From assembly GCA_045863295.1 (NCBI GenBank), contig BTWA01000026.1, forward strand, positions 1 through 64,000: a DNA stretch of 64,000 nt, given 5' to 3'. Shown here one piece after another: positions 6,742-40,805 of this stretch; position 1 is the first letter of the stretch; the number at the start of each line of letters is the position of its first letter. A program made the translations under genes and the position numbers. Under the pieces are notes generated by a model, which worked only from the letters and a program-made list of their open reading frames with translations, was not told the DNA's origin and searched no databases. Source of the DNA: Candidatus Hydrogenedentota bacterium. GTDB lineage: Bacteria > Hydrogenedentota > Hydrogenedentia > Hydrogenedentales > SLHB01.

Positions 6742-6822
<81 letters not shown>

Positions 6823-6830
6823 AACCTTAT

Positions 6831-6866
6831 GCGGCACACAGAGTTATGTGTGTCGTTTTTCTTTTT
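6831..6866 (+). terminator. Terminator-like hairpin after the tRNA
   Basis: GCGGCACACA-gagtta-TGTGTGTCGT (two G:U pairs) followed by TTTTCTTTTT. Confidence 0.65.
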
Positions 6867-7141
6867 CTGCACTTGTCGTCCAGTCTGGTGTACTGCAAAC
6901 TGCGTCACGCGCTTTAATCCCTACCAATAGCGTATCGTTTGTGCTGTCTTTTCTGGCACATGGTCGATCACAAGAAGCGCGAAACTTGCTCAAGCATGCA
7001 CGGCAATTGGAGACACACAGTCTATGCGAAGTACGTGTCGTTGTCCTATTTGTCTGAGCCTCTTGTTAGACATAGAACCCGAAGGGTACCAGAAATCGCA
7101 CGTACCCCTGTCTGCATACTAAGAGATAACCTTTCACCGTT

Positions 7142-7237
7142 AGCTTCGTCAAACAAAATGAGCTTGCGGCGCTTCGGCTGGCACAGGGGCAACACCGTCA
7201 CGGCCTCGTGGAAGTCTTCGGTTAGTCTAAAGATGAC
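7142..7237 (-). pseudogene. Decayed third copy of the WD40-cassette N-terminal module
   Basis: Not in the ORF track. Translates VIFRLTEDFHEAVTVLPLCQPKRRKLILFDEA, 16/32 identical to MIFDLARDFRDALATIPRDHPKRRTLELFEEA. GGAGG lies 6 nt upstream of a GTC codon at the start position; similarity is lost after codon 32. Confidence 0.75.
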
Positions 7238-7490
7238 AGCTCACCTCCGCCATTCCGATACGACCTCACGCTCTCAAGAAAAAACTCTTGAACTCCTAGG
7301 TCCGCGGTGAATGTGTCGCGCTTGCGGTTGGGTGTCAGAAGGAATTCGCCGTAGTGTAAGGCCGTCCCGTGGATCAATGCGGCGGGACGCTGCATCTTGT
7401 GCCATAAATATATGTCAATCGACAAGGAACATCGATTCGAAACGGGACTCGCAGGCGTACAACACCGATTTCATTTCCATCACTGGCACC

Positions 7491-10400
7491 TCAGCGACGC
7501 CAAGGTCCTGACGGTGCCAGTTCCAGAAAATGGACTTCCCCCGCCTCGGTGCCTGCGTATATACGCGACCCAAACACCGCGCATGAAGTCATGGGAGTGC
7601 TGTTGACCCACATCGCCAGACATTCTCCGCTTTCCAAATCCCACAACCTGAGCGTACAGTCCTCACTGACGGACACCGCGCGGCGCCCATCAGCGAGGAC
7701 CGCAACCTCCCACACGGCGCCATGGTGTCCGGGAAGCGTTCGCATGCAAACGCCCGTATTCAGATCCCACAGCCTCACCGTCTTGTCTTCGCTTCCTGAA
7801 CATGCGCGGTGCCCATCCCCGTATACGGCAACCGAACGCACCCAAGCTTTGTGGCCCGTCATAGTCAGTAATCGCGTTCCTTTCTCCAGGTCCCAGACAA
7901 TGATTTGCCCATCCTCCCCGGAAGAGACTAGCTGGCGGTCATTATTAAACGCGGCGAGAGCATCTACCAAGCCGGTGTGCCCACTTAGCGTGCGTGACCG
8001 GACCTGGGTCGTTAGATCCCAGACATAAATGGGGCCAACATTCCTACCTGGAATCCTGGAACCAGTAACCACTTGCCGGCCGCCACCAATAACCGCAATC
8101 GCTCCTATGTCGAATCCCTTAATCATTTGCAGGCCGTCGCCGCTGCCCAAATCCCAGAGTTTGACTGAACTAGGCGCAATTGGTCCCGCCGATACCGCGC
8201 GAAGTCCGTCAGGGAGAAGAGCCAACGACCAGATGGAGTGATTTCCGCTTATCGTTTGTCTGCACGCCCCGCTCGATGTATCCCAGAGCTTTAGAGTACC
8301 CTCCACGCTTCCCGAAAGTAAGGTTCCTCCATCGAGTGAGACAGCAAGCGATGTAACTTCCTGAAAGTGCGCTTCGCCTTTGTCCTCACTGGGGACATCC
8401 AAGTCCCACATCTTGATCACGCGATCAGATCCGCTCGAGAGCAGACGACGCCCGTTTCTGAGAGGAGACAAGGCGTATATGCATCCTTGGTGCCGCCCGA
8501 AATCGCGCAGGCACTTCCCATTCTTCAAGTCCCACAACTTGATGATGCCTTCATTTCCCGATCCTGTAACTGCATGTCGATTGTCCGGAAGGAGTGCGAC
8601 AGAAAAAAGTTGGCCACGATGCCCGTCGAGTGTTATCCGCTCCACACCCGCAACCAAGTCCATCACATGCAGGTTTCGTGGCCCGTCGCCTCCGAAGACG
8701 GCCACGCATCCATCGTGTGAGACTGAGACGTAGCGGACTCGGGAGTTAAAGCTCCTATCACAGGAACCTGTCTCAAGGTTCGCGACGAGTATTCCGCGTT
8801 CGTGCACGGAGACGACCCTGCGGCCGCTCATAAACGTGGCCGCTGAATAGACCGCGCCCAACTTCTCGTGGCCGAACGTGCCCAGGCATTCGCCAGTCTG
8901 CACGTCCCACATCTTAAGGGTCTTGTCGCTACTGCCCGACAAGAACCGGCCCGCCGGTAAACTGACCACGGCTGTGACACCACCCTCGTGCCCTTCATAC
9001 GTACGCAGGCACGTACCGGCTCTCAAGTCCCACAGCTTAATGGTCTTGTCCTGGCTGCCGGAAAATGCATGGAGTTCGTCCGGCAGTACCGCGAGGCATT
9101 TTATTTCCCCTTTGTGCCCTTCCATGGTACGCAGACATTCCCCCGTGGTGAGATCCCATACCTTGAGGGCGTAATGCTTCCCGGCTGGGGGGTGTTCGTA
9201 GCCGCTTGCCGAAAGAGCCTTGCGCCCACCCTCGAGAAACGCCACATCATGGACCGACCCAGAATGGCCCTCGAGGGTCATCATGCACGGGTGCGGAATT
9301 GGATCAAGTGGCCGTTGCAGCGACCGCAGCCAGGGTCTCTCAGGGCCATGTTTCGCAAGCCAAGCTTCGACGGAACGCGCCACGGCACCTTGCTGCGCGT
9401 AGGCATAGGCAGTCTGAAGGAAACAAATCTCGGGGCTGCTAACCGAAACTCGCTGCCAGAGGTGCGAGTTCTGAAAGTAGAAACGATACCACTCCTGAAA
9501 CGCAGGGTCTTTCCGTTCGAGTGCTGCCGCCGTTCTCTCGAATTCCGCTTTGACTGCATACGCTGCACGATTGCCGCCGGACTGGATTTGGGCAAAGTGA
9601 TATTCGAAACGGGTCAGCGCAGAGATCGAGCGATCTCGTTGGACCACATCTATGGACTCAGCGATTCCAGAGTCGGCCTCCAGTCTCGGTGGAGCGGGCG
9701 AGAAATGAGCGGATTCGCCGGACTGCCGCGGGCGCATGGATGCAAATGTACCAACTCGCACGCCTCCGATCGGAGGAACCTGCCCCACGGGCCTGCCAAC
9801 AGGCTTCCTCCTGACTTCCCTGGAAACGGGCACTTCCTGAACTTCCCTCATCCACGTGAAACGCCCTTGCATTGCGGCGTGTCTATCCGGAGCAACCGGT
9901 TCCAGATTTTTCTCGGCCGGAACCGGTTCTTCGCCACCTCTGGCGGTCATTTCCACGGCCGCGCAGTAGACATAGCTGGATCGCTTGCCGGTAGCCGCGA
10001 AAACGCTGGCATTCGGGTGTGGCGTGACGTAGCGCAAAGGTACCCGAAACCAGGCAGCGGCTTTCATGGCAGGCTCGATTTTCAAGACCGCCTCGTTCAA
10101 TTCTGAATCCAAGCCGAACCTGCCAATAGAGGGATTAAGTGGCGGCAACTCCGGGTTGCAGGTGGCCATCCATTCTTCATCGTTCCAAGGGGCCGAAGTC
10201 GTAGTTCCATCCGGAAGGATGGTTATCTCACCTGCCGGCTCCCCCTCATAAACACGGGGAGTGCGTTGGCAGTACATTCCTTTGGCATTCCAGAGTCGTA
10301 TCCCTTCCATTCCAGCCGTGCCAATAAGCGAACCATTGGGTGACCATTTGACCTGTAGACCAGAACCTTCGTGAGCTGTCACAAAACCGGCCGGCCGGCC

Positions 10401-11645
10401 ATCAGCCATTTCGAATAGGTCCAGGCGGCCATTGTGCTTTATTACAGCCAGCCTGCACCCATCGGGGGAAAGTGCGGCAGTCACTCTTTGGCCCCGACCC
10501 TCGCTCGCGCAGAAAACGCTCGCCGGAGATAGATCCTGTGCATGCCAGAGTTTGGCAGATCCATTTCCGCCTCCGCTCCAGACAAGAGAGCCGTTGGGTG
10601 AGAAGCCGACTGCGTTTATAGCTGATCCGACATCCACAACAGTCCGTTGAGTGCCTTCCGGAGAGGTAACGCTCAAATATACTGTGTGCGCTTCGCGCTC
10701 GCAGATTTTTTCCCACGCGTCTCCACGCTTATCGAGCACAATCAGCTTGCCGTTATTGCACCCGCAGATGATGCGCGAACCGGTGGGATGACACGCAATG
10801 CTGACCGCAAAGCAATGCGTAAACGAACCGGTGAAACCGTATAGGAATGTATCCGACAGCGGACCTATCGAGACTTGGCTGATCCGGCGCCAATCGTCGA
10901 TGGACCATTCGGTAACCGACGCTCCCGCCGAAAGCAACACGGGAGCATTGGGGCGTAGACATAGGCTTGTACAACTTCCCTTTGCGTCCAGCGTGCGTAA
11001 GCACGCACCGGAGACGACATCGTAGACGCGTATCGTTTCGTCCCCGCATCCGACAGCGCTCGACCGCCCGTCTGGCAGAAAAACTAGGCATTCAGGGCAT
11101 GCATCGCTCAGCACGATGGTCGTGAGCGCGGCGCAATCCGCAACGTCAATTATGCGTACGGTACCTGTTTTAGCCGTCCTGTTCGCGGAACAGACAGCGC
11201 ATCGGGTGCTATCGGGTGAGAAAGTCAGTGCCGTGACATACCCAGACAGACGGAACGTCCCAAGTGCTCCCGTGCCAAGATGCGTTACCGGCGGATACAG
11301 GCTTCGAATCCAGAGAAGCGGATACTCCTCGTGGTGACGGGCACGCCACGCGCGCCAGCTCCCGAGCAATTCCGACAGCCGGTGACCAGACGCCTGCCAA
11401 GGTAAAGGCAGCATGGTTGGCGGCCACCCCCCGTCCGGTTCCCGGTAGAAAAACGCCGCGTCAGGACAGTCGTACCACCAACAGAGGTTCCACATACACT
11501 GAAAAAGCGTCGTCGGGTGCCGCTCAACGAAATGAATATCCCGGCGAATGGCTTCTTCGAAAAGTTCCAGCGCGCCACGCTTGGGGTGATCGCGCGGAAT
11601 CGTAGCGATCGCGTCGGTGTAATCGCGCGCGAGTTCGAAGATCAT
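7491..11645 (-). CDS. WD40-repeat protein, cassette 2 (two helical-module + WD40 blocks)
   Basis: 1384 aa with many GH...WD repeats in the C-terminal half and degenerate repeats in the N-terminal half. First 63 aa are 52/63 identical to the 11825-15115 product. Confidence 0.9.
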   Translation of the reverse strand: MIFELARDYTDAIATIPRDHPKRGALELFEEAIRRDIHFVERHPTTLFQCMWNLCWWYDCPDAAFFYREPDGGWPPTMLPLPWQASGHRLSELLGSWRAWRARHHEEYPLLWIRSLYPPVTHLGTGALGTFRLSGYVTALTFSPDSTRCAVCSANRTAKTGTVRIIDVADCAALTTIVLSDACPECLVFLPDGRSSAVGCGDETIRVYDVVSGACLRTLDAKGSCTSLCLRPNAPVLLSAGASVTEWSIDDWRRISQVSIGPLSDTFLYGFTGSFTHCFAVSIACHPTGSRIICGCNNGKLIVLDKRGDAWEKICEREAHTVYLSVTSPEGTQRTVVDVGSAINAVGFSPNGSLVWSGGGNGSAKLWHAQDLSPASVFCASEGRGQRVTAALSPDGCRLAVIKHNGRLDLFEMADGRPAGFVTAHEGSGLQVKWSPNGSLIGTAGMEGIRLWNAKGMYCQRTPRVYEGEPAGEITILPDGTTTSAPWNDEEWMATCNPELPPLNPSIGRFGLDSELNEAVLKIEPAMKAAAWFRVPLRYVTPHPNASVFAATGKRSSYVYCAAVEMTARGGEEPVPAEKNLEPVAPDRHAAMQGRFTWMREVQEVPVSREVRRKPVGRPVGQVPPIGGVRVGTFASMRPRQSGESAHFSPAPPRLEADSGIAESIDVVQRDRSISALTRFEYHFAQIQSGGNRAAYAVKAEFERTAAALERKDPAFQEWYRFYFQNSHLWQRVSVSSPEICFLQTAYAYAQQGAVARSVEAWLAKHGPERPWLRSLQRPLDPIPHPCMMTLEGHSGSVHDVAFLEGGRKALSASGYEHPPAGKHYALKVWDLTTGECLRTMEGHKGEIKCLAVLPDELHAFSGSQDKTIKLWDLRAGTCLRTYEGHEGGVTAVVSLPAGRFLSGSSDKTLKMWDVQTGECLGTFGHEKLGAVYSAATFMSGRRVVSVHERGILVANLETGSCDRSFNSRVRYVSVSHDGCVAVFGGDGPRNLHVMDLVAGVERITLDGHRGQLFSVALLPDNRHAVTGSGNEGIIKLWDLKNGKCLRDFGRHQGCIYALSPLRNGRRLLSSGSDRVIKMWDLDVPSEDKGEAHFQEVTSLAVSLDGGTLLSGSVEGTLKLWDTSSGACRQTISGNHSIWSLALLPDGLRAVSAGPIAPSSVKLWDLGSGDGLQMIKGFDIGAIAVIGGGRQVVTGSRIPGRNVGPIYVWDLTTQVRSRTLSGHTGLVDALAAFNNDRQLVSSGEDGQIIVWDLEKGTRLLTMTGHKAWVRSVAVYGDGHRACSGSEDKTVRLWDLNTGVCMRTLPGHHGAVWEVAVLADGRRAVSVSEDCTLRLWDLESGECLAMWVNSTPMTSCAVFGSRIYAGTEAGEVHFLELAPSGPWRR

Positions 11646-11824: not shown

Positions 11825-14800
11825 CTACTTCTCACCTCCGTCATGCCCTTTGGGTCCCTCCAAGCGAAACAGGAGCAAGTGCTCCGCAGAAGAACCGGCC
11901 CACGTCCAGCGAGCCGACGAGACGGTCACATGTTGCAACGAAGCTGGAAACCATGCGCAATCGAGTAGAGATTCTGCGCAAAGCACGGCAGTCGTATATC
12001 CTTGTGTAAACGTTAACCAGCGATATCCTGCCGCGGCGTGGGACACTGATGTCGTATCTCTCACATTCTCGATTCTACGTATACACTCGCCCGATTTGGC
12101 ATCCCAAAAATGAATATCAAACCAGCGTCCTGTCCCCGTCCTCCTGTGAGAAGCAGAAATGACGCGCTGGTCGTCTATCATGAAAGCTACATCTAGCACG
12201 TGGCTTCTGTGCCCTCGCAAGACCATCAATTCCATTCCGGTGTCTAAATTCCAAACTCTTGCAGTCTCATCCATTGACCCTGATACAACATGATTACCAC
12301 TGTGCGAAAATGCGGTCGAGGTGACATCCGAATCATGACCGCGCAGTACGACAAGTTCTCGACCGGAATCCAAGTCCCAGATTCGAACGGTACCGTCACG
12401 CGATGCCGAGCCAATTCGGCGCGTATCCGGCGAGAGTGCAATACTATGTACCCACTTGGTGTGCCCACAAAGAACCGCGAGGTCATCCAGTAAGTAGCCA
12501 TCCGAAACATGAATATTATGGGTGGGCGAATCATACGCGATTATGCGTGAATTTGGGGAGAATGCAACACTATTCGGCGGGCTCGGATCTCCGGTTTCCA
12601 ACGTGTTCAATGCTCTATCTGAGTTTGCATCCCAAATCTTGATAGTCCCACCATATGAACTTGATGCAATAAACTTTCCGTCCGGGGAGAAGGCAACATA
12701 CTTTATGGCGTATTGATGCCCCCTGAGTGTCTGTAGCAATACCCCCGTGTCTCTATCCCAGAGTATGATGTTGTTGTCGGCTGCGCCAGAGGCGATACGT
12801 CGCCCATCTGGCGAGAATGCGGCCGGGCTTGATCCTTGGTTACCGCAAACGGTCCTTAGCTCAATCTTGTTCTGAACGTCCCATAGGTGGACGTAATTGT
12901 AGTCACCCGAGACGATGTAGTTGCCATCCGGTGAAAACGCCACGTGCGTGACGAGCCATTCGTTCGCTTGCAGTGTATAGATTCTGGCTCCCGAGCGTAC
13001 ATCCCACACCTGGATAGAGCCATCGAATAAGCCGACGGCTATGCACTTTCCATCAGGCGAAAAGGCCACGTCGGTATACTTGTTCGGCCCGCGAAACACG
13101 CGAAGTTCGTTTTTCGAGTCGACGTCCCACAGGCGGACCGTATTGTCATACGATGCAGAGGCTACGCATTGTCCATTCGGAGAAAACGCGACGCTGGTCA
13201 CAAAGTCCTCATGGCCGCGCAGAACGCCCGTTTGCATACCAGTTCGTATGTCCCAAATCCGTACAGTCTTATCGCCACAGGAAACGATCCGATCACCTTC
13301 CGGAGAGAAACTAACCTGATTAACTTGACTTTCGTGGCCGCGGAGCGCGAGTACCTCCCTCTCCGTTCGCAAGTCATATAGTAGTACTGTTTTGTCTTCA
13401 GATGCGGTCAGGATGCGGAGAGCGTCTGGCGAATACACGAAGGGGCCACACCCGTGTTCAGACCGCACGGTCCTTAGGTTGATTCCCGTCTCAGAATCCC
13501 ACGCTTGCCATGCCGAATTATTTGCCGTAATAATCCGAAATCCGTCGGGTGAGAACTCAAGCTTCTCTGCCGAACTGCTTGGTAGTTTAGTCAGGGTCTC
13601 ACCGCTGGCGATGTCCGTAACTAAGGCCCCATCTCTAGAACAGGATACGACTCGCTGTCCGTTAGGGGAGAAAGCGACGTTTGCAACGGGAGATTCGTGG
13701 GCTTTTACGACGCGAGTTAGCGTTCCCGTCTGTGCATTCCACAGGCACATTGTGTTGTCTCTAGAACCAGAGGCCACGCAGTCGCCTTCCGATGAAAATG
13801 CGATGCTTTTTATGTCAGATCGGTGTTCATTAAGCTCGTCCATTGTGTATAAGACTTGTGTGTCCCACAATATAACAACGCCGTTAGAAGACCCTGAAGC
13901 GATTTGCTTCCCATCAGGGGAAAATGCAGCAGTTTCGACATAATCTGTGTGGCCGCAGAGCAAACCCAACTCGGTGCCAGTATCGGAATCCCAAAGCCGA
14001 AGCGCTTTCATACTACCGGAGGTAGAGGCGCCCCGGTGCGAGCCGAGCGCCAAGGCTAATGGGAGATCCGTCTTAGGAAATCTGAACAACTCTATGTCGG
14101 TGTCGGCGCCTAGATCCCAAAACCGCACAGTACCATCGCCCAGCACGAATACGATACGGAGCGCGTCCGATGTGAACTCCAGTGATATATCTTTCGCGAT
14201 ATCGCCGAAATCTGAGCACGACCTCCCCAAGATGAGTGACCGTTCCCCGTTCCGTGAATCCCACAGCTTTATTTCAGAGCCTCCCATCGACGCGACACTA
14301 TTGCCATAAGGAGAAAACGCCACGCGCTTCACTTCTCCGTTATGATGGTGCAAGACTCGCATCTCTGACCCTGATTCCGCACCCAAGATATGCACTGTGC
14401 CCTCGTCTGTGCCGAATACGACTCGCCCCCCATCGGGTGAGAAGGTTACATTCGACGATGCGAATATGTGTTGCTTAGTAAACAAGGGGATCCCCCCAGC
14501 GACATCCCACACATTCACGGTGCCAAATGTCGAGCGTGAAACGATGCGCCTGCCATCAGGTGAAAATGAGATGCTTTCAAACTCCTCTTCTTCACGACTA
14601 CGCAACACATTCAACTCGGCACACGTGACCGCATCCCAAATGCGAATTGTCATATCTGTAGAGCCGGAGGCTAGCAGTCGTCCGTCCGCTGAATACGCCA
14701 CGCTCAAAACTCTAGACAGCGATTCGTGACCGCACAATATGCCCCTAAGGGAAGAGCCCAAATGCAGTTTCTGTGGCCGCAAAGTGCGAAGCCAATAGAA

Positions 14801-31633: not shown

Positions 31634-31658
31634 CCAGTGAGAACGAAAAGGTACTGAA

Positions 31659-32880: not shown

Positions 32881-34641
32881 ATGACCTATACTTCGAAAAT
32901 ACGCGGGGGGTGGGAACCCGTTCGAGCTTTTTGGCGCGTTTGGGGGTGGCCTATTATCTGGGCGCTTGGGGTGGCGTCGTTTGTGTGCGGATATGTGGGG
33001 TTCGCGCAATATTACCAGTCACAGGCCGAAGTCCATTCGGTGTTGGAACTGGTGTACCGCACGCTCCAGCTCTACGTCCTCCAATCCGGAGCGTTGGACT
33101 ATCCGGTCCCGCCTGCGCTTGAGGTCGCGCGGTTTCTTGCGCCCGCCGTGTTCGGTTACACGGCAACCCGCGCGCTGACATCGCTGCTGCGCGAACAGTT
33201 TCTCACGTTATGGCTATGGCGGCGGCGGGAGCACGTCGTTGTGTGCGGACTTGGGCGCAAGGGCCTCCAAATCGCAAAAGACTTCAGCAACCGGTACTCC
33301 GTCGTTGTTATCGAGCCCGATGCGCACAACGACCGCATCCGTCACTGCCGCGACTTTGGCGCGCGCGTCCTCATCGGCGACGCATCGGACATCGACCTGC
33401 TACGGCAGGCGGGCGTGGCGCGCGCGCGTTACGTCGTCGCCACGACGGGCGACGACGGGGTAAATGTGGAAATCGTGCTCCACGCCCGCGAACTGGTGCA
33501 ATCGCGCCCCGCGATGTTCTCGCATACCTGCACGTGCCTGGTTCACATTGTCGACTCCACATTGTGTGCGGTCTTCAAAATGGCGCCGACTTTTACCTCA
33601 GGCAAGGATTGGTTCGAGGCAACGGTTTTCAACATATACGAAAACTGCGCAAGGCAACTGTTCGAAGTGCAACCGCTGGACCGCGTGCCCATCGGCGTTT
33701 CTAGCCGGGTGTCGGTCCACCTCGTCGTAATCGGATTCGGCCAAATGGGTCAGGCTGTCGCGCTGCAGGCGGCACGCGTGGGCCATTTCGCAAATGGACG
33801 CCGGCTGCGCATCAGCGTCGTCGATCGAAACGCGAAGGAAGCACACGCCGCCTTCCTTGCGTTGTATCCGCGATTTGGCGACATCTGCGACATCGAGTTC
33901 GTTCACGCACTCGCGGGAAGCGCGGAAGTCAACGAACGCTTGATCGCTTGGGCGACCGAAGAGAACGCGATGCTGACCGTTGCCATTTGCCTCGACAACG
34001 ACACGCGCAGTCTGACGCGGGCCCTGGCTATCGCGGAGAAGCTCCGGGAGTATAACGTGCCCGTTCGTGTTCGGATGGAAGAAGACACGGGACTGGCCAG
34101 CTTGCTCGTATGCGAGGGCGTATGTCATCCTTCGATTGCATACATCCGCGCATTTGGCCAGATTGATCGCGTGTGCGCGCTGAACCGGCTACTGTCCGAA
34201 GAGCAGGACCGCAAGGCGCGCCGGCTCCACAATCGGTTTATCGCCGTGGCGCGGCAAGATCTCAAGAGACCGAAAGATGACCCGGCGCTTCTGGACTGGG
34301 AGAAACTCCCCGAAACATACAAGGAGTCGAACCGGCAGGCGGCGGATCATCTTCCGGTGAAACTGCGCGCAATCGGAATCACAGAGAATGGCGATCTCAC
34401 ACGCGAATTGAAAACACGTGAGATCGAAATTCTAGCCCGCATGGAACACGCGCGCTGGATGGCCGAGCGCCAGCTTTCTGGCTGGAAGTACGCGCCCGGG
34501 CCGAAGAACGACACGAAGAAGACGAACCCAAACCTCGTGGCATGGTCGAAACTCGATCGCGCGAATAAGGACAAAGATCGCGGCGCGGTCCGCGAAATGG
34601 TAAGTTGGCTCAAAGTCCCAACGCACAGGAGTGCTACATGA
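32881..34641 (+). CDS. Membrane protein with tandem TrkA-N/RCK domains and C-terminal RyR domain
   Basis: Two TM segments; Rossmann motifs 'HVVVCGLGRKG' and 'HLVVIGFGQMG'; RyR motifs 'WEKLPETYKESNR.AADH' and 'LARMEHARW.AER...GW.Y....D......NLV.W..L'. Confidence 0.85.
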   Translation: MTYTSKIRGGWEPVRAFWRVWGWPIIWALGVASFVCGYVGFAQYYQSQAEVHSVLELVYRTLQLYVLQSGALDYPVPPALEVARFLAPAVFGYTATRALTSLLREQFLTLWLWRRREHVVVCGLGRKGLQIAKDFSNRYSVVVIEPDAHNDRIRHCRDFGARVLIGDASDIDLLRQAGVARARYVVATTGDDGVNVEIVLHARELVQSRPAMFSHTCTCLVHIVDSTLCAVFKMAPTFTSGKDWFEATVFNIYENCARQLFEVQPLDRVPIGVSSRVSVHLVVIGFGQMGQAVALQAARVGHFANGRRLRISVVDRNAKEAHAAFLALYPRFGDICDIEFVHALAGSAEVNERLIAWATEENAMLTVAICLDNDTRSLTRALAIAEKLREYNVPVRVRMEEDTGLASLLVCEGVCHPSIAYIRAFGQIDRVCALNRLLSEEQDRKARRLHNRFIAVARQDLKRPKDDPALLDWEKLPETYKESNRQAADHLPVKLRAIGITENGDLTRELKTREIEILARMEHARWMAERQLSGWKYAPGPKNDTKKTNPNLVAWSKLDRANKDKDRGAVREMVSWLKVPTHRSAT

Positions 34642-34919
34642 GCTACGCCCCAAGACCAATCGACACATCAGGTGTGGTGTTGACAGAAGAAATTGCAAAG
34701 CTGACGGAACTGCTCGCGGAAAATGCCCACGAGCATTGGGCCAAGCAGCGTCTCAGCGATGGCTGGCGCTACGGTCCCACGCGGGACGATGCCAAGAAAG
34801 AACATCCCTGCCTCATTCCCTACGGTGATCTCCCCGATTCCGAAAAGACATACGACCGAAAAATGGCCATAGAAACCCTGAAGGTAATCCTGGCCCTCGG
34901 CTATCGCATAGCGAAATAG
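34638..34919 (+). CDS. Stand-alone RyR (ryanodine receptor repeat) domain protein
   Basis: 93 aa 'YAPRPIDTS.V.L...LAENAHEHWA..R..DGW.YG..RDD..K.HPCL.PY..LP.SEK.YDR'. ATGA overlap with the upstream stop. Confidence 0.92.
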   Translation: MSYAPRPIDTSGVVLTEEIAKLTELLAENAHEHWAKQRLSDGWRYGPTRDDAKKEHPCLIPYGDLPDSEKTYDRKMAIETLKVILALGYRIAK

Positions 34920-34961: not shown

Positions 34962-37748
34962 ATGAAAACGGTCGTCGTGACTGGCGATGTCATGGTGGAC
35001 CACCACCTTTACGAAGGCAAACGCTTGACGGCATCCGCGACCGATCAACCGGGCTTTAAAGTGTGCCGGCAGCATGGAGGCGCCATGGCCGTTTGCGATC
35101 TCGTTAACGCGGTCATAAACCAGTCGATAACGGACTCTGCTGCCGAGATGGAATGCAAGGCGAAGGCCGTAGAAGACGCCAGACAGGCCTGCGCGAAAGA
35201 CAGTGAAAAGGAAGCTGCACAACAGAAACTCGCGGAGGCGGAAGAGGCCCTCCAGAAACATAAGCGGGTAAGAGAATCTGACTGGAAAGCATGCTTCGGT
35301 CTGACGACGCCCCTGGAACACGAGATACCCTGCGGGCATCATGCCCTCTCCATATGGAAACCATTCCAAACAATGGAAGGCAATGAGGAGAAGAAAGTCT
35401 GGCGGGCGGATTTGCTGATGGGCTACGGCCACGATGACGCTCCAGCAAAATGCGACACGGAGAAGTGCGAGTATACACCCAAAGTCCTTTCCCCGCCGCC
35501 GCCACGCGCGGATGTCCTGGTGTTGGACGACGGCGGCTTCATTTTTCGACACCGTTTCCAACGCGATTGTTGGCTTTTGCCATCGGCGCAGGAAAGTAAG
35601 CCCCATTGGATTGTAATGAAGATGAGCGGGCCGGTCTGCCAAGGCGATCTGTGGTCGCACCTCAAGACGTATGGAGATCGGCTTATCGTCGTGGTCTCCG
35701 CGAACGATTTACGCCAAGAGTGCGTACATTTGGGCGAAGGACTTTCATGGGAGCGCACCGTAGAAGAACTGCGGGACGCGCTGCTAACAAACCCTGCATT
35801 GAGCGACTTGGTGTCCGTTCCGCGCCACTTAATTGTGCTGTTCTCGGCCGACGGCGCGCTGTGGTTGGATAGGTCTGGCGAACAACTCAAAGCGACGCTT
35901 GTCTTCGACGCCGGTGGCATTGAGGGCTGGTGGGGGCGGAAGATCGAGGGCAAGGCCTTTGGATACATGTCGTGCATGGTTGCCTCTGTTGTTCGGGCGG
36001 CGATGCACGATTCAGAGGAACCGGCGATCGATCCGGCGGTTCGGGCAGGCCTCGCCGCAATGCGGGACCTTGCCCGGTGGGGACACGGTGAGGTAAACGA
36101 CGGCTGGCCATCCGGCTTTCCGTGCGACCGGTTGGCGCGGGTGATCGTTCGGGGCGGCAGCGGCTTCGCCGTCACGCGCGTCCCGTGGAGCGAGGCCGAA
36201 CGAAACCTCTATGCCCCCGCACCCGAAAATCCAGACGGGAAGTCTCCTTGGCGGATTGTCGAGACGTCTCAGTGCCCCTTTGGAGACGGAAAGACACCCT
36301 CGCTGCTCGGCCTGGCCTCGCAGGTAGTGATCTATGGAGAACTGGCCATTCGCGCACTCCCCCATGCCCGATTTCGCAACCTGCTAACAGCCGACCGTAT
36401 TGAAATCGAGGCCCTGCGATCCATCGAAGTGCTGATGAACCGGTATCTCGACGAGACAAAACCAAAGCGGCCGCTCTCGATAGGCGTGTTTGGCCCGCCG
36501 GGCGCCGGCAAATCATTTGGCGTCCGGCAGCTTGCCGACGACATCTTTGGCGCAAAAGCATGGTTGGAATTTAATCTGTCACAGTTCAAGGATTCCAAGG
36601 ATCTAATCGGCGCATTTCATCAAGTGCGGGACACGGTGCTAAGCGGGCAAACCCCTACCGTCTTCTGGGATGAATTCGATTCCCGCGAATATGAGTGGCT
36701 CCAGTACCTGCTCGCGCCGATGCAGGATGGGCGCTTCCAGGAAGGCCAGATCAGTCACTACATTGGCAAGTGTGTCTTCATTTTCGCCGGAGCGACCGCC
36801 TATTCGTTTAACGAGTTTGGACCTGCGAAGCCGCCGGACAAACGGTTCGATGCAGACGCGTGGAAAAAATTCAGCTTGCGCAAAGGCCCGGATTTCCACA
36901 GCCGCTTGGACGCCTATTACGACGTGCTCGGGCCCAATCCGCGCACGGTATTGCCCCACGATGGCTGCGGCTCGCAACGCGTACCGGACCCAACAGATGT
37001 CTGCTACCCGCTGCGGCGGGCCTTGCTGATTCGATCTCTCTTGAAAGCCAAGAATTCGGCGCTCGATTTCGATCCGGAATTGCTCCACGCCCTGCTGCAA
37101 ACTGCCGAATACACGCACGGGGCACGCTCCCTCGAAAAACTCGTTACAGCACTCATTCCCACAAAAAAAGGCCAGTCAATCCGGCGCTCGGCATTGCCGC
37201 CGCCGGCCCAACTCGCGATGCACGTGACGGAACCAGAACAGTTCATACACATGCTGGGCCGACACGTCCAATATCGCAATCCTGAAACGATCAATGCCAT
37301 TGCACAAGGCATCCACGAAACGTGGCGTGAGCTTTCGGCAATAGAGCATTGGAAGATGCAGCCCGCCTATGACATGCCATACGAATTGCTTGGAGATGTG
37401 GAAAAGGATGAAAACCGTGCGGCCGCCCGCCGCATCCCGGACATCCTCGCCCTCGCCGGACTGCGGATCGAGCAGTCCGATCTGCCACACGGCGCCGGCG
37501 TCGAAGACCAGTTGAAGCAACCGCATCAACTGCGGCGGTTGGCAGAAGCCGAACACGAAAGGTGGATGGCGCATCGCATCAAGAACGGATGGCGTTATAG
37601 CGAGCAGCGTGACGACGCAAAGAAGCTGCACCATGCGCTCGTGCCGTATGCCGACTTGGCTGAGGCCGACCAGAAAAAGGATCAGAATTCGGTGAAGCAC
37701 TTCCCCGAAATGCTGCGCCGCGCGGGTTACCGTATCGTTTGGGCATGA
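34962..37748 (+). CDS. AAA+ ATPase with C-terminal RyR domain and PfkB-like N-terminal region
   Basis: Begins 'VVVTGDVMVD'. Walker A GPPGAGKS, 'FNLSQF', Walker B VFWDEFD, 'LAPMQDG.F', 'HGARSLE'. C-terminal 'LAEAEHERW...GW.Y...RDD.KKLH..LVPY..L'. Confidence 0.85.
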   Translation: MKTVVVTGDVMVDHHLYEGKRLTASATDQPGFKVCRQHGGAMAVCDLVNAVINQSITDSAAEMECKAKAVEDARQACAKDSEKEAAQQKLAEAEEALQKHKRVRESDWKACFGLTTPLEHEIPCGHHALSIWKPFQTMEGNEEKKVWRADLLMGYGHDDAPAKCDTEKCEYTPKVLSPPPPRADVLVLDDGGFIFRHRFQRDCWLLPSAQESKPHWIVMKMSGPVCQGDLWSHLKTYGDRLIVVVSANDLRQECVHLGEGLSWERTVEELRDALLTNPALSDLVSVPRHLIVLFSADGALWLDRSGEQLKATLVFDAGGIEGWWGRKIEGKAFGYMSCMVASVVRAAMHDSEEPAIDPAVRAGLAAMRDLARWGHGEVNDGWPSGFPCDRLARVIVRGGSGFAVTRVPWSEAERNLYAPAPENPDGKSPWRIVETSQCPFGDGKTPSLLGLASQVVIYGELAIRALPHARFRNLLTADRIEIEALRSIEVLMNRYLDETKPKRPLSIGVFGPPGAGKSFGVRQLADDIFGAKAWLEFNLSQFKDSKDLIGAFHQVRDTVLSGQTPTVFWDEFDSREYEWLQYLLAPMQDGRFQEGQISHYIGKCVFIFAGATAYSFNEFGPAKPPDKRFDADAWKKFSLRKGPDFHSRLDAYYDVLGPNPRTVLPHDGCGSQRVPDPTDVCYPLRRALLIRSLLKAKNSALDFDPELLHALLQTAEYTHGARSLEKLVTALIPTKKGQSIRRSALPPPAQLAMHVTEPEQFIHMLGRHVQYRNPETINAIAQGIHETWRELSAIEHWKMQPAYDMPYELLGDVEKDENRAAARRIPDILALAGLRIEQSDLPHGAGVEDQLKQPHQLRRLAEAEHERWMAHRIKNGWRYSEQRDDAKKLHHALVPYADLAEADQKKDQNSVKHFPEMLRRAGYRIVWA

Positions 37749-37812
37749 CGACAAATGAACTACATGTCCGGCGCCGCAATACCAAGGCCGTTGTTTGAGT
37801 GGCTTCTCACGA

Positions 37813-39678
37813 TCACGCCGGCAGGTGCGGTCCGTGGAACGCCAGCGATGCGGCCCACTCGTAGTTCTCCGAGGCCATGATGTCGCTTGCCGTTCGGACG
37901 TGGGCGCGAATTTCGTCGGGGGTTTCCGCTTTCCGAAGGTCCTCGGCGACATCGTTCAACAACCTCGCCATATTCGCGGACCGGCTCGAGATCCGCTCGC
38001 CATCGAGCAGGGTGTTGATCGCCTGAAACGTTGCGCCCCACAACGGCAGCAGCACGGTGATGCCAAACAGGACGGCCGTGACCGTGCCCATGCCATGCTT
38101 GCCCGGTTCGCCGTGGCCGATCCCTATAGCGTGGAAGAAGGCGGCTACCAGCGTCAGCGAGAAGAGCACCAGTCCCACGCGGTGCAGCGTCTTTGGCAAC
38201 TTCAGTTTCCTCTCGACATTATCCATGTGCCATTGGGCCTGCGGCGTGATCCAGTCCTGCTCGATGAAATCTCGCAATGCCAGCCACCCGGCCTTTTCGT
38301 CCGCGGGATGTAGCGCGGGGCCGGAGGCGCGCATGATGGCCACGTCCACCCAGTCCGCGGGCCGCCGGTAAAAAGGAAGGTGGGATACATCGCGGCGTTG
38401 CCCCGACGCGGTCATTTCGCCCAGCAAGTCCGTGTACAATTTCGCGCGCAGGCGCTCGGCGAAATGGCGGTCGTGCAGCCATTTTTCGTGCCAGCGCTCC
38501 TTTCGCGATATGCGCAGCAACGCCAGAATTGCGACCATCGCCAGCACTTCGAGAAAGGCCGCCGCATACCACGACGGCGCAAACAACATCTGCATGACGG
38601 AAACCGTTACGCCGGAAGCGGCGAGTGTAAAAAGCCCTCGCGCGCTTCTAAAGTGCAGATTCTGGTAGTGAAGCGACAACACGTCGCTCCGGGCATAGTG
38701 CGCCAGCGTTTGCCATGTCTTGTCATTGAGAACCCACTCCGGCGGGTGAGTTTTCTGCGCGGTGTCCAGCATCGAATCCTGGTGTTCGCGAAATTTCCGC
38801 GCAATCGATTCCGCCGAAACCGCGGTGTCGCGGTTGTACGCCGCCAGCGCGTGATAACTTGGCGAAAACTCCTTCGCAGTCTGCGGGAGTTCGCACGTTT
38901 TCAATTTGACTGGCGTCTCTTCTGAATCGGAAGATTCCGGCACTACTAACTTCGCGGGAGTTCGAGGGTTGTCCGCGTTAATCCATAGAATGGTTCGCCC
39001 GTGCAGCAGCGCGTGCTTCACGATATCGCCGGTCCCCCCCCATCCTTTGGCGGGTTTCCCGTCCCACACGGCGATGAGTATGTCGCACTGGTGCACGACC
39101 AACTCGCCCGCTTCCCGGTACAGACAGTCTCGATTCGAACCGTGCGCGTCCAGCATGCCTGCGATTCCCGGCGATGCGTCCAGCGCGAGGAGCTTGCGAA
39201 ACGCCTCCAAACTCGGCGCGTCGAAATCGTGTTCGTATTCCTCGGCATCAAACGGTAGAACCACCTGCAATTGGGAGTCCTTCCGCGCCAGTACAGCCTC
39301 CGCCACGATAATGTCCGCGCCCTGCGCCAACGCCGAAACGACGCGCCATCGCAATGGTGTCGTCATGGACGGATCGACCACGGCCGGTGTCACCGGTACG
39401 GCCGGCCAAATCCACTTCAGCGCGGCAACCAACGCCCGATCGGCCCGCCTCTTGATGGTCTGTTGATTGGTGTGTGGCCCAAGCGGATTTGATCCAGCCG
39501 ATTCCAGCACGCGCTGGACATGATCCAACAGCGCGTCCACGGCCAGTCGCACGCCCGCTTCATCTCCCAACGCCCGATGGCCTGTCACGCCGATCCGCAA
39601 CTCGTACGGTATGGGTTCAGGCAGGCCGACGGAACTCGCGGAACTCCCGCTCGTTTCACTTCCCACTACAGGAGACAT
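37813..39678 (-). CDS. SLOG (YspA-like) domain fused to two SLATT-type 2TM domains
   Basis: SLOG motifs 'IGVTGHR', 'SALAQGAD', 'VVLPF', 'CDILIAVWDG....GGT.D.V'. Two 2-TM units, followed by 'W...R..AERLR' and 'IM.SEN.EW'. Start at ATG 39678 after GAGGG. Confidence 0.8.
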   Translation of the reverse strand: MSPVVGSETSGSSASSVGLPEPIPYELRIGVTGHRALGDEAGVRLAVDALLDHVQRVLESAGSNPLGPHTNQQTIKRRADRALVAALKWIWPAVPVTPAVVDPSMTTPLRWRVVSALAQGADIIVAEAVLARKDSQLQVVLPFDAEEYEHDFDAPSLEAFRKLLALDASPGIAGMLDAHGSNRDCLYREAGELVVHQCDILIAVWDGKPAKGWGGTGDIVKHALLHGRTILWINADNPRTPAKLVVPESSDSEETPVKLKTCELPQTAKEFSPSYHALAAYNRDTAVSAESIARKFREHQDSMLDTAQKTHPPEWVLNDKTWQTLAHYARSDVLSLHYQNLHFRSARGLFTLAASGVTVSVMQMLFAPSWYAAAFLEVLAMVAILALLRISRKERWHEKWLHDRHFAERLRAKLYTDLLGEMTASGQRRDVSHLPFYRRPADWVDVAIMRASGPALHPADEKAGWLALRDFIEQDWITPQAQWHMDNVERKLKLPKTLHRVGLVLFSLTLVAAFFHAIGIGHGEPGKHGMGTVTAVLFGITVLLPLWGATFQAINTLLDGERISSRSANMARLLNDVAEDLRKAETPDEIRAHVRTASDIMASENYEWAASLAFHGPHLPA

Positions 39679-40446
39679 GATCTTCCCTCGCACTGGAACG
39701 CGCGACGCAGTCTACGCGCGGAGAATTGCGTCAACCGCGCCCGCGGACCAATTGCCGGGCGAGTCCATCCATTTCCTTGATCACGTGCAGTCGACCTGCG
39801 CGGTATCGTTTCTGAGTTTCGTATTGCGGCCAGAACCCGGCAGGTCAACGAGACTCTTCACGGTTTCCACGTCATCGCACACCCCCCAGAATGTTGTGTC
39901 TGTGGATCCTATCGACAACCACTCCATAAATCAACGGACTGCAATTTCAAATTCAACAGTACTCAACAACACCTCTACTAGGCGTTCAGTAGCCTCAACA
40001 CGCATCAATCTCGTTTGGCGTGGTAACTCTACCTCCAGATGTATACTTTGAGACCACTAACAATCCCGCTCATTGGACATCTTGCGGCACATCCTGAAAT
40101 CCCGAACATGCAGCTTAACCGCTACAGGAGTCCATCGCCGGAACTCCTTAACCTGGACCGCCAAAGCGCAGGAGAAGGAGTTTCACGGTGGACGATTTCG
40201 ACGGTCAAAGCCATGCCACATGGGATCGCAGATACCACATACTGCTTCTCCCTAAGCTCTGGAGAAAGGTGTTGTACCGGTAATTGCGAAAGCAACTTGA
40301 AGGAATATTTCACTGATTGGCGGGGCAAAAGGAGTGCCGGTTCAATAGGGCATCAAATGGCCGAACATTCCTTCAACCACACATCCGGTCACAGGCGCTA
40401 GGCTCCGTGTTGCCAATTGCCGTTTCGGCTTAAGAAGATTGTTCTA

Positions 40447-40647
40447 CTTTGTGTGCCACTTTATTTGAAGAACTCCGTGCTGTTAGTGGAAGGTGGAATG
40501 TGCCAAGTGACATGGATAACGATCAAAGACGTTTCACAGGGCACCTTGGAGGGCGGAGGCACGACCGTTACCCCCGATACTCTCTAGAATCTCGCTCAAA
40601 GCAAGTCAGCGCGTCTGCCGTGTCTTTGTGTGACACATTCTTTGAAG
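40447..40647 (+). repeat. Imperfect 24-bp direct repeat pair near the right end of island 1
   Basis: CTTTGTGTGCCACTTTATTTGAAG (40447-40470) and CTTTGTGTGACACATTCTTTGAAG (40624-40647); 21/24 identical. Confidence 0.6.
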
Positions 40648-40756
40648 TATATGTGCTACACGGCGTTGCATGTGGCACAGAGACCGAAGGCTGGAAACGG
40701 TTTGGACTCTGTAAACTACAATGATTTCCACGGGTTACGGGTCATAGGTGGAAGCC

Positions 40757-40805
40757 GCTCATAACCCAATGGTCGTAGGTTCGAATCCTACCCCCGCTAC
40801 CAATT
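40757..40805 (+). repeat. att core copy 2 (tRNA-fMet 3' fragment), junction of islands 1 and 2
   Basis: 48/49 identical to 6773-6821; the 5' half of the tRNA is absent. Confidence 0.92.

Follow-up and report, generated by a model that had tools for sequence, protein, structure and literature searches.

A tRNA-flanked island of an uncultured bacterium that may encode a multi-module NLR-like conflict system built around NAD+/ADP-ribose

In an uncultured Hydrogenedentota bacterium, a ~34-kb island adjoining a tRNA gene encodes NLR-like STAND and WD40 proteins, RyR-domain proteins, a SLOG-SLATT protein, a Pup-type module and a sigma-54 activator. From their domains and folds, the island borders, a promoter-like site and the recurrent linkage of the genes in other genomes, all of which were observed, we suggest that most of the island may make up a single NLR-like immune (conflict) system of several modules with NAD+/ADP-ribose at its centre, with a probability of roughly 0.55. 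The window analysed was the whole stretch of 64,000 nucleotides that contains the island.

The left border is a tRNA-Met (CAT) gene (6742..6818, + strand; ARAGORN; Rfam tRNA, 65.4 bits). The 49 nt at its 3′ end (6773..6821, +; attL-like) are directly repeated at the right border (40757..40805, +; 48 of 49 identical), so that the limits 6819-40805 proposed in the sequence-only reading are real. A further copy of the repeat lies at 46604-46652, and the 25-mer core of the repeat gave three matches where none was expected. No integrase was found on the contig and no integrase remnant at the island ends. The genome has three RyR, two DUF4062 and two Pup_ligase genes, and every one of them sits inside the island. 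Pfam recovered every gene class of that reading where it had been placed, and also bore out the absence of restriction-modification, CRISPR, replication, conjugation and phage structural domains (25 ORFs scanned); two small genes, for a 68-aa tag and a stand-alone RyR protein, had been missed. These two genes, a channel model and a SLOG fold are what is added here. PADLOC gave no system-level match, only WD40 and bEBP-AAA cross-matches. The description of the island as a eukaryote-like innate-immunity toolkit agrees with matches to the human TEP1 TIR-like domain and to repeat 1 of animal RyR2.

Two of the proteins combine an N-terminal DUF4062 (TIR-like NADase) domain with a STAND NTPase. The 841-aa protein, STAND1 (15112..17637, −), has an NWD1-type winged helix and matched DUF4062 (3.4e-11), AAA_16, NACHT and HTH_NWD1 in Pfam. 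The 1436-aa protein (27323..31633, +; Pfam) has a DUF4062-STAND-WD40-like layout of TEP1/NWD1 architecture, and its N-terminal domain matched the solved human TEP1 TIR-like domain (11gz) over 189 residues (E 1.9e-43). Two WD40 beta-propeller giants are encoded nearby. The 1384-aa giant is a candidate sensor (7491..11645, −; Pfam WD40 2.3e-91), and its homologues adjoin STAND genes at other loci. The start of the gene for the 1096-aa giant (11825..15115, −; Pfam) overlaps the stop of the STAND1 gene by 4 nt; this giant is probably a sensor arm that has become detached from STAND1. At an Acidobacteriaceae locus (L189) the two are fused in one ORF of 1531 aa (STAND1+WD40b).

Avs-type STAND proteins with a DUF4062/NIR NADase effector (PsAvs2) and human TEP1/NWD1 likewise begin with DUF4062 and end in repeats, with the STAND NTPase between them, and the winged helix is shared with TEP1/NWD1-type proteins. 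Unlike in those proteins, WD40 propellers are the sensors of the island, in one case encoded as polypeptides of their own, and, unlike in Avs-type DUF4062 systems, the STAND genes show linkage to RyR and SLOG-SLATT genes. In preprints, NADase activity is given for the DUF4062 of Avs2, Swarozyc and TEP1, and this activity may be carried over to the island proteins by analogy. The systems described there work alone by NAD+ depletion, with linear ADPR as the product and no cyclic signal, which leaves no need for a second tier. RyR, SLOG and SLATT are mentioned zero times in the DUF4062 preprints.

The H-x-x-W and D motifs of RyR are kept in all three RyR proteins of the island. One of these (32881..34641, +; Pfam TrkA_N 9.7e-26, RyR 3.8e-11) has a 2TM pore-like domain, two Rossmann (RCK) domains and C-terminal RyR repeats. 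Its structure model (pLDDT 91.6) found GsuK as best matches in Foldseek, with VIA Z values of 18.7 to GsuK (model 18..440 against GsuK 18..479) and 16.1 to MthK. The model is that of a 2TM channel like GsuK and MthK, but with no K+ filter. It shares with GsuK and MthK the order TM1, pore helix, TM2 and then RCK Rossmann domains with GxGxxG, and the alignments begin within the membrane domain. In contrast to GsuK and MthK, it lacks TVGYG, the loop reading QSGALDYPVPP (family consensus SGxVxGP), and has an added C-terminal RyR double repeat. The stand-alone RyR protein of up to 104 aa (34605..34919, +, the domain itself spanning 34644-34913; Pfam RyR 1.8e-35) matched repeat 1 of animal RyR2 (E 4.5e-71 for the whole protein; best repeat, 90.6 bits). 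The third is a 928-aa AAA+ ATPase with C-terminal RyR repeats, AAA-RyR (34962..37748, +; Pfam RyR 4.2e-16), in whose Atlas clusters 83-93% of members have RyR and 44-52% have AAA.

RyR-domain proteins bind or cleave 2′/3′cADPR, as stated in a preprint (10.64898/2026.05.28.727677). The phage protein RyDEP described there, an RyR-domain glycosidase or sponge for 2′/3′cADPR, belongs to the same Pfam family (PF02026), and the ligand/catalytic positions named for it, H-x-x-W and an Asp, are also present in the island RyR domains. Unlike RyDEP, these domains are host-encoded and are fused to the channel or the AAA+ ATPase, or free beside them. By analogy, they may bind cADPR/ADPR and could have receptor and buffer roles. 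No publication on host RyR-domain partners was found in the literature.

The gene for the 626-aa SLOG-SLATT protein (37813..39693, −) is convergent with the AAA-RyR gene across a 64-nt gap. Pfam gave weak SLATT/DUF4231 matches and did not call the SLOG domain, a label that the structure model (pLDDT 88.7) confirmed, with YpsA (2nx2) as the best PDB match, followed by DprA (both at probability 1.0). Homologues bear PF18181/PF18184. Among Thoeris systems, type I is SIR2-SLOG and type VII is TIR+SLATT; an NAD+-processing TIR-type domain is paired with a SLOG-bearing and SLATT-bearing effector, as in the island, and the logic of making a nucleotide and opening the membrane matches our reading. Unlike in Thoeris, the producer in the island is a DUF4062-STAND-WD40 NLR-like protein with no small ThsB, the DUF4062 product in the tested cases is linear ADPR, and the island adds RyR-domain proteins, a channel, an AAA+ ATPase, a Pup module and a sigma-54 activator.

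A comparison of genomes, as had been proposed, found that sub-blocks of the island do recur elsewhere. The SLOG-SLATT gene has at least 544 relatives, of which the 80 best were analyzed with 10-kb flanks. AAA-RyR was present at 30 of these 80 loci, DUF4062-STAND at 18, WD40 at 12, TrkA_N-RyR at 7 and the activator at 5. In 17 of the 30 cases AAA-RyR was directly adjacent on the same strand (gap ≤50 nt). By clustering, 48 of the 80 loci had at least one of AAA-RyR, a STAND cluster, TIR-STAND, TIR-DUF4189 and TrkA_N-RyR. For TrkA_N-RyR, 79 loci were taken from the 80 best-scoring relatives (of 313); they had AAA-RyR (17), STAND (9), WD40 (7), the activator (4) and homologues of a 336-aa island protein (3). 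At 81 control loci anchored on Dop, STAND and AAA-RyR were never found, SLATT, TrkA_N-RyR and WD40 were found once each, and the activator twice. No partner was found within 10 kb at 30 of the 80 SLOG-SLATT loci and at most TrkA_N-RyR loci. These counts are not independent events, since the loci are a best-scoring subset that includes related lineages (many Acidobacteriaceae, six Marinicaulis).

Tight operons with most of the parts occur in at least eight phyla. For example, a same-strand operon in Eubacteriales (L238) reads WD40, STAND, WD40, a 141-aa ORF that separates the second WD40 gene from the next, AAA-RyR and SLOG-SLATT, with three junction gaps of 10-22 nt. Others were found in Bacteroidales (L173), Planctomycetaceae (L175), Acidobacteriaceae (L189) and Chloroflexi (L157), the last with a fused RyR+SLOG ORF. 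At other SLOG-SLATT loci the STAND partner has TIR_2 in place of DUF4062, a replacement that fits an NAD+ cleavage product as the common currency. Among 121 genomes sampled from the phylum, 19 had RyR, 21 had DUF4062 and 10 had both, against 3.3 expected if independent; in 6 of the 10 the two lay within 8 kb on one contig. On the question whether the island is one system or several, functional linkage is thus favoured for STAND/WD40, RyR and SLOG-SLATT. The Pup module, with 5 other loci, and the activator, with 10, are less strongly linked.

Two of the island genes are hypotheticals. The 336-aa protein (17721..18731, −) has an N-terminal hydrophobic segment and neither a Pfam nor a PDB match; its homologues, 42-45% identical, lie beside TrkA_N-RyR genes at three loci (L085, L087, L150). 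The 373-aa protein (31659..32780, +) had no Pfam match, only weak, PsbP-like structural neighbours (TM 0.41-0.46) and no homologue at any of the loci fetched.

For the tagging step of the sequence-only reading, support comes from a gene for a Pup-like tag and from an interface predicted between its product and a Dop-like enzyme. This Dop/PafA-family enzyme (538 aa from Met50 of a long ORF; 23657..25273, −; Pfam Pup_ligase 2.9e-56) scored higher for Dop (6e-48) than for PafA (5.6e-31) in NCBIfam, both below the cut-off, and its N-terminal LLGADTEISHF is kept in homologues. The 68-aa Pup/UBact-like tag (23454..23660, −) was recognized as an ORF ending in QQSGQ, with a tail similar to those of tags downstream of Dop-like genes at other loci; it has no Pfam match. 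The complex model of tag and Dop-like enzyme scored 0.80 (best control, 0.10); 116 of 157 solved complexes attain that mark, as do 2 of 215 mismatched pairs. Between runs, at least 60% of contacts were in common, and the partner pLDDT was at least 51. Memory of solved Pup complexes may account for this score. A divergent 562-aa Pup-ligase-family protein (21735..23423, −; Pfam Pup_ligase 2e-20) has substitutions at several positions that are otherwise conserved, which makes its catalytic competence doubtful and counts against the multi-module reading. Its gene is translationally coupled to that of an 894-aa TPR-like protein (19054..21738, −), whose homology is with the sensor arm that TIR-STAND proteins have at their C-terminus: residues 138-894 align with the C-termini of three TIR_2-NPHP3_N/NACHT proteins (P0295-P0297). 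Relatives of the TPR protein are few (34 representatives in 1.84 billion); in one protein (P0308) Pup_ligase is fused to a related TPR region. Pup genes adjoin RyR/SLATT genes at five loci (L008, L135, L222, L242, L016).

As in dop-pup loci, the small tag gene is flanked by two Pup_ligase-family genes, and tag-Dop docking is predicted as in Pup/UBact systems (Dop, Pup, PafA, Mpa, 20S). Unlike in those with a proteasome, the Mpa-type OB domain had no match in this bacterium, and the one PF00227 match, of 183 aa, is as in HslV-only genomes. The tag also ends in SGQ, the divergent ligase is coupled to an NLR-type TPR arm, and control is by sigma-54.

The sigma-54 enhancer-binding protein (~25453..27108, +; Pfam Sigma54_activat 9.9e-54; loop GAFTDG) has an N-terminal domain of ~160 aa without a match in Pfam or PDB, its NCBIfam and PADLOC matches being confined to the AAA core. 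A −24/−12-type element, TGGCATGGTCATTGCT (25287..25302, −; TGGCAT-N5-TTGCT, one mismatch), lies 13 nt upstream of the Dop-like ATG and scored highest among the 22 window sites; the genome also has rpoN. The earlier picture of two divergent arms around a sigma-54 promoter was only partly upheld: there is a single good site and it faces the left (Pup) arm, so induction is supported for that arm only. Upstream of it, a palindrome read from the sequence, CTGCAAGGTTGCAG (25357..25370), is a possible activator site; it is absent from the repeat-tool listing. No conserved sigma-54 site was evident at related activator loci.

Defence genes also cluster in islands for non-functional reasons. A possible but doubtful explanation is that self-sufficient systems piled up at a hotspot beside tRNA-Met: two Avs-like DUF4062-STAND NADases with WD40 sensors, an AAA-RyR/SLOG-SLATT pair, an RCK-RyR channel with a small RyR partner, and a proteasome-less Pup module with its activator. 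Linkage would then be only apparent, resulting from travelling mobile cassettes. The modules often occur singly, gene order and content differ among loci, the island genes form at least four transcription units, and homologues of the TPR protein and the 373-aa protein were absent from all fetched RyR/SLATT loci, all of which counts against a single pathway. In the preprints DUF4062 proteins give defence unaided, and the repeats at 40757 and 46604 indicate two tandem insertions and thus repeated use of one att site. Against such a hotspot, STAND and AAA-RyR recurred far above the control (18 and 30 of 80 versus 0 and 0 of 81), operons in distant phyla often have gaps of ≤22 nt, fusion proteins exist, and restriction-modification, CRISPR and other common defence families are absent from the recurrent neighbour clusters.

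We consider it improbable that the island serves housekeeping or developmental signalling, with an NAD(H)/ADP-ribose-responsive channel and membrane protein for ion balance or programmed dormancy under metabolic or redox stress, and sigma-54 and Pup tagging for proteostasis. PDB titles indicate that NAD+ or ADP gates RCK channels such as GsuK, some SLOG-SLATT genes adjoin histidine kinases and sigma-54 activators, and the G+C content of the island is no different from that of its flanks. However, the genes are patchy in the phylum (RyR in 19, DUF4062 in 21 and TrkA_N-RyR in 15 of 121 genomes) and lie within a tRNA-flanked insertion. NLR-type architecture and large variable repeat arrays suit conflict systems, and preprints show roles of DUF4062, SLATT and RyR in phage-bacterium conflict.

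For the multi-module conflict system, we infer the sequence of steps as well as ligands, targets and phenotype, including killing. An invader- or stress-derived protein would be recognized by WD40 propellers, which share a chain with the NTPase in the 1436-aa protein but are detached in the case of STAND1 and its WD40 neighbours. The STAND NTPases would then oligomerize and bring their N-terminal DUF4062/NIR domains together, and these TIR-like domains would convert NAD+ into ADP-ribose (or a related product) and nicotinamide. The sigma-54 activator would turn on the operon of the tag, the Dop-like enzyme, the ligase-like protein and the TPR arm, which may tag chosen proteins without a proteasome, for regulation of the system or marking of targets. 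The product, the drop in NAD+ or both would be sensed by the RyR-type adenine-nucleotide pockets of the GsuK-like RCK channel, the AAA+ ATPase and the free RyR protein (a possible buffer or degrader of the signal), as well as by the SLOG domain of the SLATT membrane protein. Depolarization or perforation of the membrane by this protein and the channel would then arrest the growth of the infected cell or kill it.

Island A (6819-40805) carries a left arm on the reverse strand and a right arm on the forward strand. The left arm encodes a Dop/PafA-family enzyme (Dop-like; 23657-25273(-), Pfam; start at Met50 backed by the conserved sequence LLGADTEISHF), a 68-aa ORF ending in QQSGQ (23454-23660(-)), a divergent Pup_ligase protein (ligase-like; 21735-23423(-), Pfam) and an 894-aa TPR-like protein (TPR894; 19054-21738(-)), whose gene has a 4-nt overlap with the ligase gene. 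A 336-aa protein without family (hyp336), a DUF4062-STAND protein of 841 aa (15112-17637(-), Pfam) and two WD40 giants, the first starting inside the STAND stop codon, are encoded on the same strand of this arm. The two giants have an identical 16-mer near their 5′ ends (11477-11492 and 14947-14962), which points to probable paralogy of their N-terminal regions. The right arm, on the forward strand, encodes a sigma-54 activator (about 25453-27108(+), Pfam), a DUF4062-STAND-WD40-like protein of 1436 aa (Pfam), a 373-aa hypothetical protein (hyp373), a TrkA_N+RyR protein of 586 aa (Pfam), a stand-alone RyR domain (34605-34919(+), E 1.8e-35) and an AAA+RyR protein of 928 aa (34962-37748(+), Pfam). 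A SLATT-type gene (37813-39693) is convergent with this arm.

All matches of RyR (3), DUF4062 (2) and Pup_ligase (2) in the genome, which is 96% complete, sit in the island. A tblastn search of the genome, with WD40 matches left out of the listing, found no paralogues elsewhere except for the AAA core of the activator. PADLOC recognised no system in the window. Structure comparison of hyp373 (Atlas) gave only weak PsbP-like neighbours, and hyp336 and the N-terminal domain of the activator had no sequence match in the PDB.

The island begins at 6819, one base after a tRNA-Met (6742-6818). A second copy of the tRNA 3′ end lies at 40757-40805 (48/49 identical to the last 49 nt of the tRNA) and a third at 46604-46652; the 25-nt core of this repeat had three matches against none expected. 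As in tRNA-integrated islands, a tRNA marks one boundary and its 3′ end recurs as direct repeats, and from the three copies we conclude that the locus consists of two tandem insertions at the tRNA, island A of 34 kb and island B of 5.8 kb. Island B (40806-46652) encodes a 723-aa right-handed beta-helix (pectate-lyase-like) protein and an 867-aa protein without family. The genome has nine integrase (PF00589) matches, none of them on this contig, and tblastn with seven genomic integrases gave only chance matches at the three island ends (best E 0.32). At the right-hand end of island A, a stretch of about 1 kb (39694-40756) has no convincing ORF and no integrase similarity; it may be a decayed recombination module. 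The G+C content of the island (0.51-0.60) is like that of its flanks. ComEC homologues were present in 21 of 21 relatives, and none of the eight regions downstream of comEC that we inspected had a tRNA or the flanking genes of the window. Same-family relatives share no synteny with the locus, their ComEC being only about 40% identical, and for this reason an empty site could not be demonstrated. Short contigs identical to both flank and island (window 1-20000) occurred in four sludge-type metagenomes from three studies (runs X2, X3, X4 and X7), so the same strain with the island recurs.

The sequence-only reading had taken the island for a eukaryote-like innate-immunity toolkit, built either as one system or from several, and had suggested looking for recurring sub-blocks in other genomes. 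We used three island proteins as anchors in one-genome-per-species contigs with 10-kb flanks: TrkA_N-RyR (79 loci), the SLATT-type protein, here called SLOG-SLATT (80 loci), and Dop-like as control (81 loci). Partners were scored by tblastn with all island proteins, and a match had to reach 150 aa and 80 bits to be counted. The sub-blocks did recur. Within 10 kb of SLOG-SLATT, AAA-RyR was found in 30/80 loci and STAND in 18/80, against 0/81 for each in the control; these loci are best-scoring subsets that include related lineages, and the counts here and below measure recurrence, not independent events. WD40 (12/80), TrkA_N-RyR (7), the activator (5) and Dop (1) were also found there, and hyp336 was not (0/80). 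Around TrkA_N-RyR the corresponding counts were 17/79 for AAA-RyR, 9 for STAND, 7 for WD40, 4 for the activator, 3 for hyp336, 2 for SLATT (5 at a looser cut) and 1 for Dop. The control had two loci with the activator, one each with WD40, TrkA_N-RyR and SLATT, and none with hyp336.

In more than half (17 of 30) of the SLOG-SLATT loci having AAA-RyR, the two genes were directly adjacent on the same strand; in two (L232 and L242) they were convergent, as in the window. Blind clustering of the neighbours at the 80 SLOG-SLATT loci gave AAA-RyR (30), a STAND/WD40/TPR cluster (29), TIR_2-STAND (6) and TIR_2-DUF4189 (5), and 30 of the 80 had no such partner. Compact operons holding most of the parts were found in Eubacteriales (L238), Bacteroidales (L173), Planctomycetaceae (L175), Chloroflexi (L157), Acidobacteriaceae (L189), Kiritimatiellia (L115), Verrucomicrobiota (L113) and Hydrogenedentota (L084). 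Fusions of STAND+WD40b and, apparently, of RyR+SLOG occurred among the loci. In the Chloroflexi locus, what looks like a single ORF (L157:3071-4684, as assembled) combines the C-terminal region of an AAA-RyR homologue, with its RyR, and a SLOG domain. Within the phylum (121 genomes), 19 genomes had RyR, 21 had DUF4062 and 10 had the two together; in six of these ten they lay within 8 kb on one contig, and the other four are fragmented assemblies. Some SLOG-SLATT genes have as neighbours a homologous sigma-54 activator and either a PFK-domain protein or a PAS histidine kinase (L016:17269-19569; L223:12314-14203).

Both STAND proteins have an N-terminal DUF4062 (Pfam 2.3e-17 and 3.4e-11), a central STAND NTPase (AAA_16, NACHT and nSTAND1 matches; P-loops GSGKT/GSGKS in the translations) and a C-terminal WD40 repeat sensor, fused or adjacent. 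They share this plan of DUF4062, P-loop NTPase and C-terminal repeats with the DUF4062/NIR-STAND proteins (Avs-like, TEP1-like). The DUF4062 of the 1436-aa protein matched the solved TIR-like domain of human TEP1 (11gz) with E 1.9e-43. The motif that may hold the catalytic Glu (E1008 in TEP1) reads S-L-T-E-L-E-I in the 1436-aa protein, S-A-T-H-Q-E-I in the 841-aa protein and S-V-T-E-M-E-V in TEP1. According to preprints on relatives, DUF4062 serves STAND proteins and TEP1 as their NADase effector. The island had no Pfam match to TIR or TIR_2, only to DUF4062; unlike Thoeris, it shows no canonical TIR-domain ThsB, the maker of the signalling nucleotide. TIR+SLATT is described as a Thoeris type that signals through cADPR.

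The TrkA_N-RyR model (pLDDT 91.6, from 50 sequences) starts with a long and a short helix, continues with a loop and another long helix, and then has two Rossmann domains and RyR. Foldseek placed GsuK entries at the top, NAD- and ADP-bound ones among them, and then TrkA, MthK and Slo1. In VIA, residues 18..440 of the model aligned with 18..479 of GsuK (Z 18.7, rmsd 9.7, 347 aligned) and residues 26..481 with 24..301 of full-length MthK (Z 16.1), so the membrane pore domain belongs to the match. The predicted fold therefore shares a 2TM/pore-helix domain followed by RCK with the GsuK/MthK RCK-gated 2TM K+ channels, but lacks their TVGYG filter; the position reads QSGALDYPVPP, with a family consensus of SGxVxGP. 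The closest match of this protein was in a Hydrogenedentota MAG (65-68% identity). NUDIX hydrolase was the commonest extra neighbour of the TrkA_N-RyR family (10/81 loci; for example, L092:11861-12403), which fits ADP-ribose chemistry beside these channels; the window has no NUDIX gene.

The stand-alone RyR protein matched RyR2 with E 4.5e-71. In the island, all three RyR proteins retain H-x-x-W and the (Y/K)D aspartate, and two of the three also retain the His of the HP/HH motif. The corresponding residues, matched by motif and not by alignment, are named as ligand-binding or catalytic in a preprint on RyDEP, a phage RyR-domain protein acting on 2′/3′cADPR; it also reports that cADPR isomers are bound or cleaved by RyR domains, which hold ADPR as well (10.64898/2026.05.28.727677). 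One Atlas cluster of AAA-RyR look-alikes lists Ascomycota among its members, which hints that the family reaches fungi.

SLOG and SLATT were reportedly defined by Burroughs and co-workers in 2015. In the model of the SLATT-type protein (pLDDT 88.7, from 32 sequences), residues ~30-270 matched YpsA (2nx2, E 1.8e-4, prob 1.0), DprA (prob 1.0) and ShosA, and are a predicted SLOG fold; the SLOG motifs GVTGHR and GxGGT are present. Its candidate SLATT 2TM module scored below the cut-off with each profile (DUF4231 19.4 bits, SLATT_1 25.7 bits, SLATT_3 16.3 bits), and homologues carry PF18181/PF18184. A SLOG fold with a SLATT-type membrane region resembles the plan of Thoeris effectors, in which a ligand-sensing SLOG or Macro domain is joined to a toxic module.

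The two Pup_ligase-family proteins matched the Pfam family with 2.9e-56 and 2e-20, and neither reached its NCBIfam equivalog cut-off. Among genomes, the nearest relatives of the Dop-like gene have ~30-33% identity, in loci ordered (RING)-E1-E2-x-JAB-Mpa-like AAA-Dop-small tag-PafA; four closer homologues (44-60%) sit on short contigs, and a metagenome scan gave relatives at ~33% identity only (9 loci). In Gram-negative MAGs (L016:3539-13189; L003, L005-L007, L009, L010 and L041), a conserved block runs from Prok-RING through ThiF E1, UQ_con E2, JAB and Mpa-like AAA to Dop, a small tag ending in GGQ/GGE and PafA. This Prok-RING-to-PafA block unites a ubiquitin-like system and a Pup-like one; Kaur et al. 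2020 mention the coupling of a Ubl system to a Pup system. The window contains no Ubl, Mpa or proteasome parts. PF16450 (Mpa/ARC unfoldase) had no match in the 96%-complete genome, and PF00227 had a single 183-aa match, on another contig. The island thus shares Dop/PafA-family enzymes with Pup/UBact-proteasome systems, but without the Mpa/ARC unfoldase and the 20S proteasome.

The 68-aa ORF ends in SGQ and has a helix motif like that of the tags in relatives' Dop loci (...AIxRxL..D...F......GQ); it had no Pfam Pup match. The modelled complex of this putative tag with the Dop-like enzyme scored 0.80 (best control 0.10) and so passed a mark that 116 of 157 solved complexes, but just 2 of 215 mismatched pairs, had attained. 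The model runs agreed in at least 60% of contacts, the pLDDT of the partner was at least 51, and the C-terminal half of the putative tag was predicted to dock on the enzyme with its tail at a conserved cradle. Pup-enzyme complexes have solved structures, and for this reason the pass shows the likeness of the predicted complex to them, not binding. Several conserved positions are missing from the ligase-like protein. TPR894 is rare (34 representatives among 1.84 billion), and over residues 138-894 it aligns with the C-terminal arms of TIR_2-NACHT-type proteins (P0295-P0297 and P0301). Another homologue, P0308, joins a Pup_ligase and a TPR894-related TPR region in one fusion protein. The homology and the fusion suggest that an NLR-type recognition arm might guide the tagging enzyme. 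Five other loci have Pup genes beside RyR/SLATT genes (L008, L135, L222, L242 and L016), three of them in Acidobacteriaceae; in L008 the order is AAA-RyR, TrkA_N-RyR, Dop, tag, ligase, regulator, WD40 giant.

Among the sigma-54-type sites in the window, TGGCATGGTCATTGCT (25302-25287(-); TGGCAT-N5-TTGCT) scored best; it precedes the Dop-like ATG by 13 nt and is part of the 179-nt gap common to the Dop-like and activator genes. The activator (Sigma54_activat 9.9e-54) has the loop GAFTDG, of the GAFTGA type, and rpoN is present in the genome (on C34). Judged by sequence, the elements of a sigma-54 regulon, namely an activator, rpoN and a putative -24/-12 promoter, are all in place. No comparable site was found ahead of the right arm, none was consistent beside activator homologues across the seven loci scanned, and a palindrome lying upstream of the promoter was not among the repeats that the repeat search listed.

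In the simplest model, based on the preprints' statements about DUF4062, RyR and TIR+SLATT in relatives together with our linkage data, the STAND sensors with their NADase would form an upstream tier. RyR/SLOG-gated membrane effectors would act downstream of it, and a sigma-54/Pup tagging layer would control this sensor-effector pathway. In its full form, to which we give a probability of about 0.3, bacteria would have a cell-intrinsic RyR-receptor pathway: NLR-like TEP1-type NADases would make an ADP-ribose-type signal, host RyR/SLOG pockets would read it and gate an RCK channel and a SLATT pore, and in parallel an NLR-type TPR arm would guide a proteasome-independent Pup-type ligase to chosen proteins. 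The island might also be a hotspot where independent systems have gathered, a tentative reading that stays plausible, since every module is also found by itself and DUF4062 proteins can work on their own.

In the collection of papers searched for RyR with TrkA, SLOG, SLATT, STAND or anti-phage activity, we found only the phage RyDEP work, and the main texts of the three DUF4062 preprints mention neither RyR, SLOG nor SLATT. What this window adds is a Pup-type arm and its NLR-type TPR partner, putative control by sigma-54 and the tRNA-island setting. If the parts cooperate, they would represent a widespread multi-phylum immune pathway missing from current defence catalogues, as the lack of a PADLOC match indicates. 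Thoeris/Avs logic would then gain host-encoded RyR-domain receptors, a ligand-gated RCK channel as effector and a Pup-type tagging arm without proteasome. If the RyR-receptor pathway is real, it would be a bacterial counterpart of the ADPR/cADPR-modulated channels, such as RyR and TRPM2, and likewise of the ubiquitin-type tagging used by the innate immunity of animals; with Pup-type tagging, it would possibly be the evolutionary source of those animal systems. The RyDEP preprint raises the question of ADP-ribose-nucleotide sensing for animal ryanodine receptors (10.64898/2026.05.28.727677). The island would offer a simple bacterial system for the old question of whether RyR-type domains of cellular proteins sense ADP-ribose-derived nucleotides, and the same system could reveal the role of the TEP1/NWD1-type NADase architecture.
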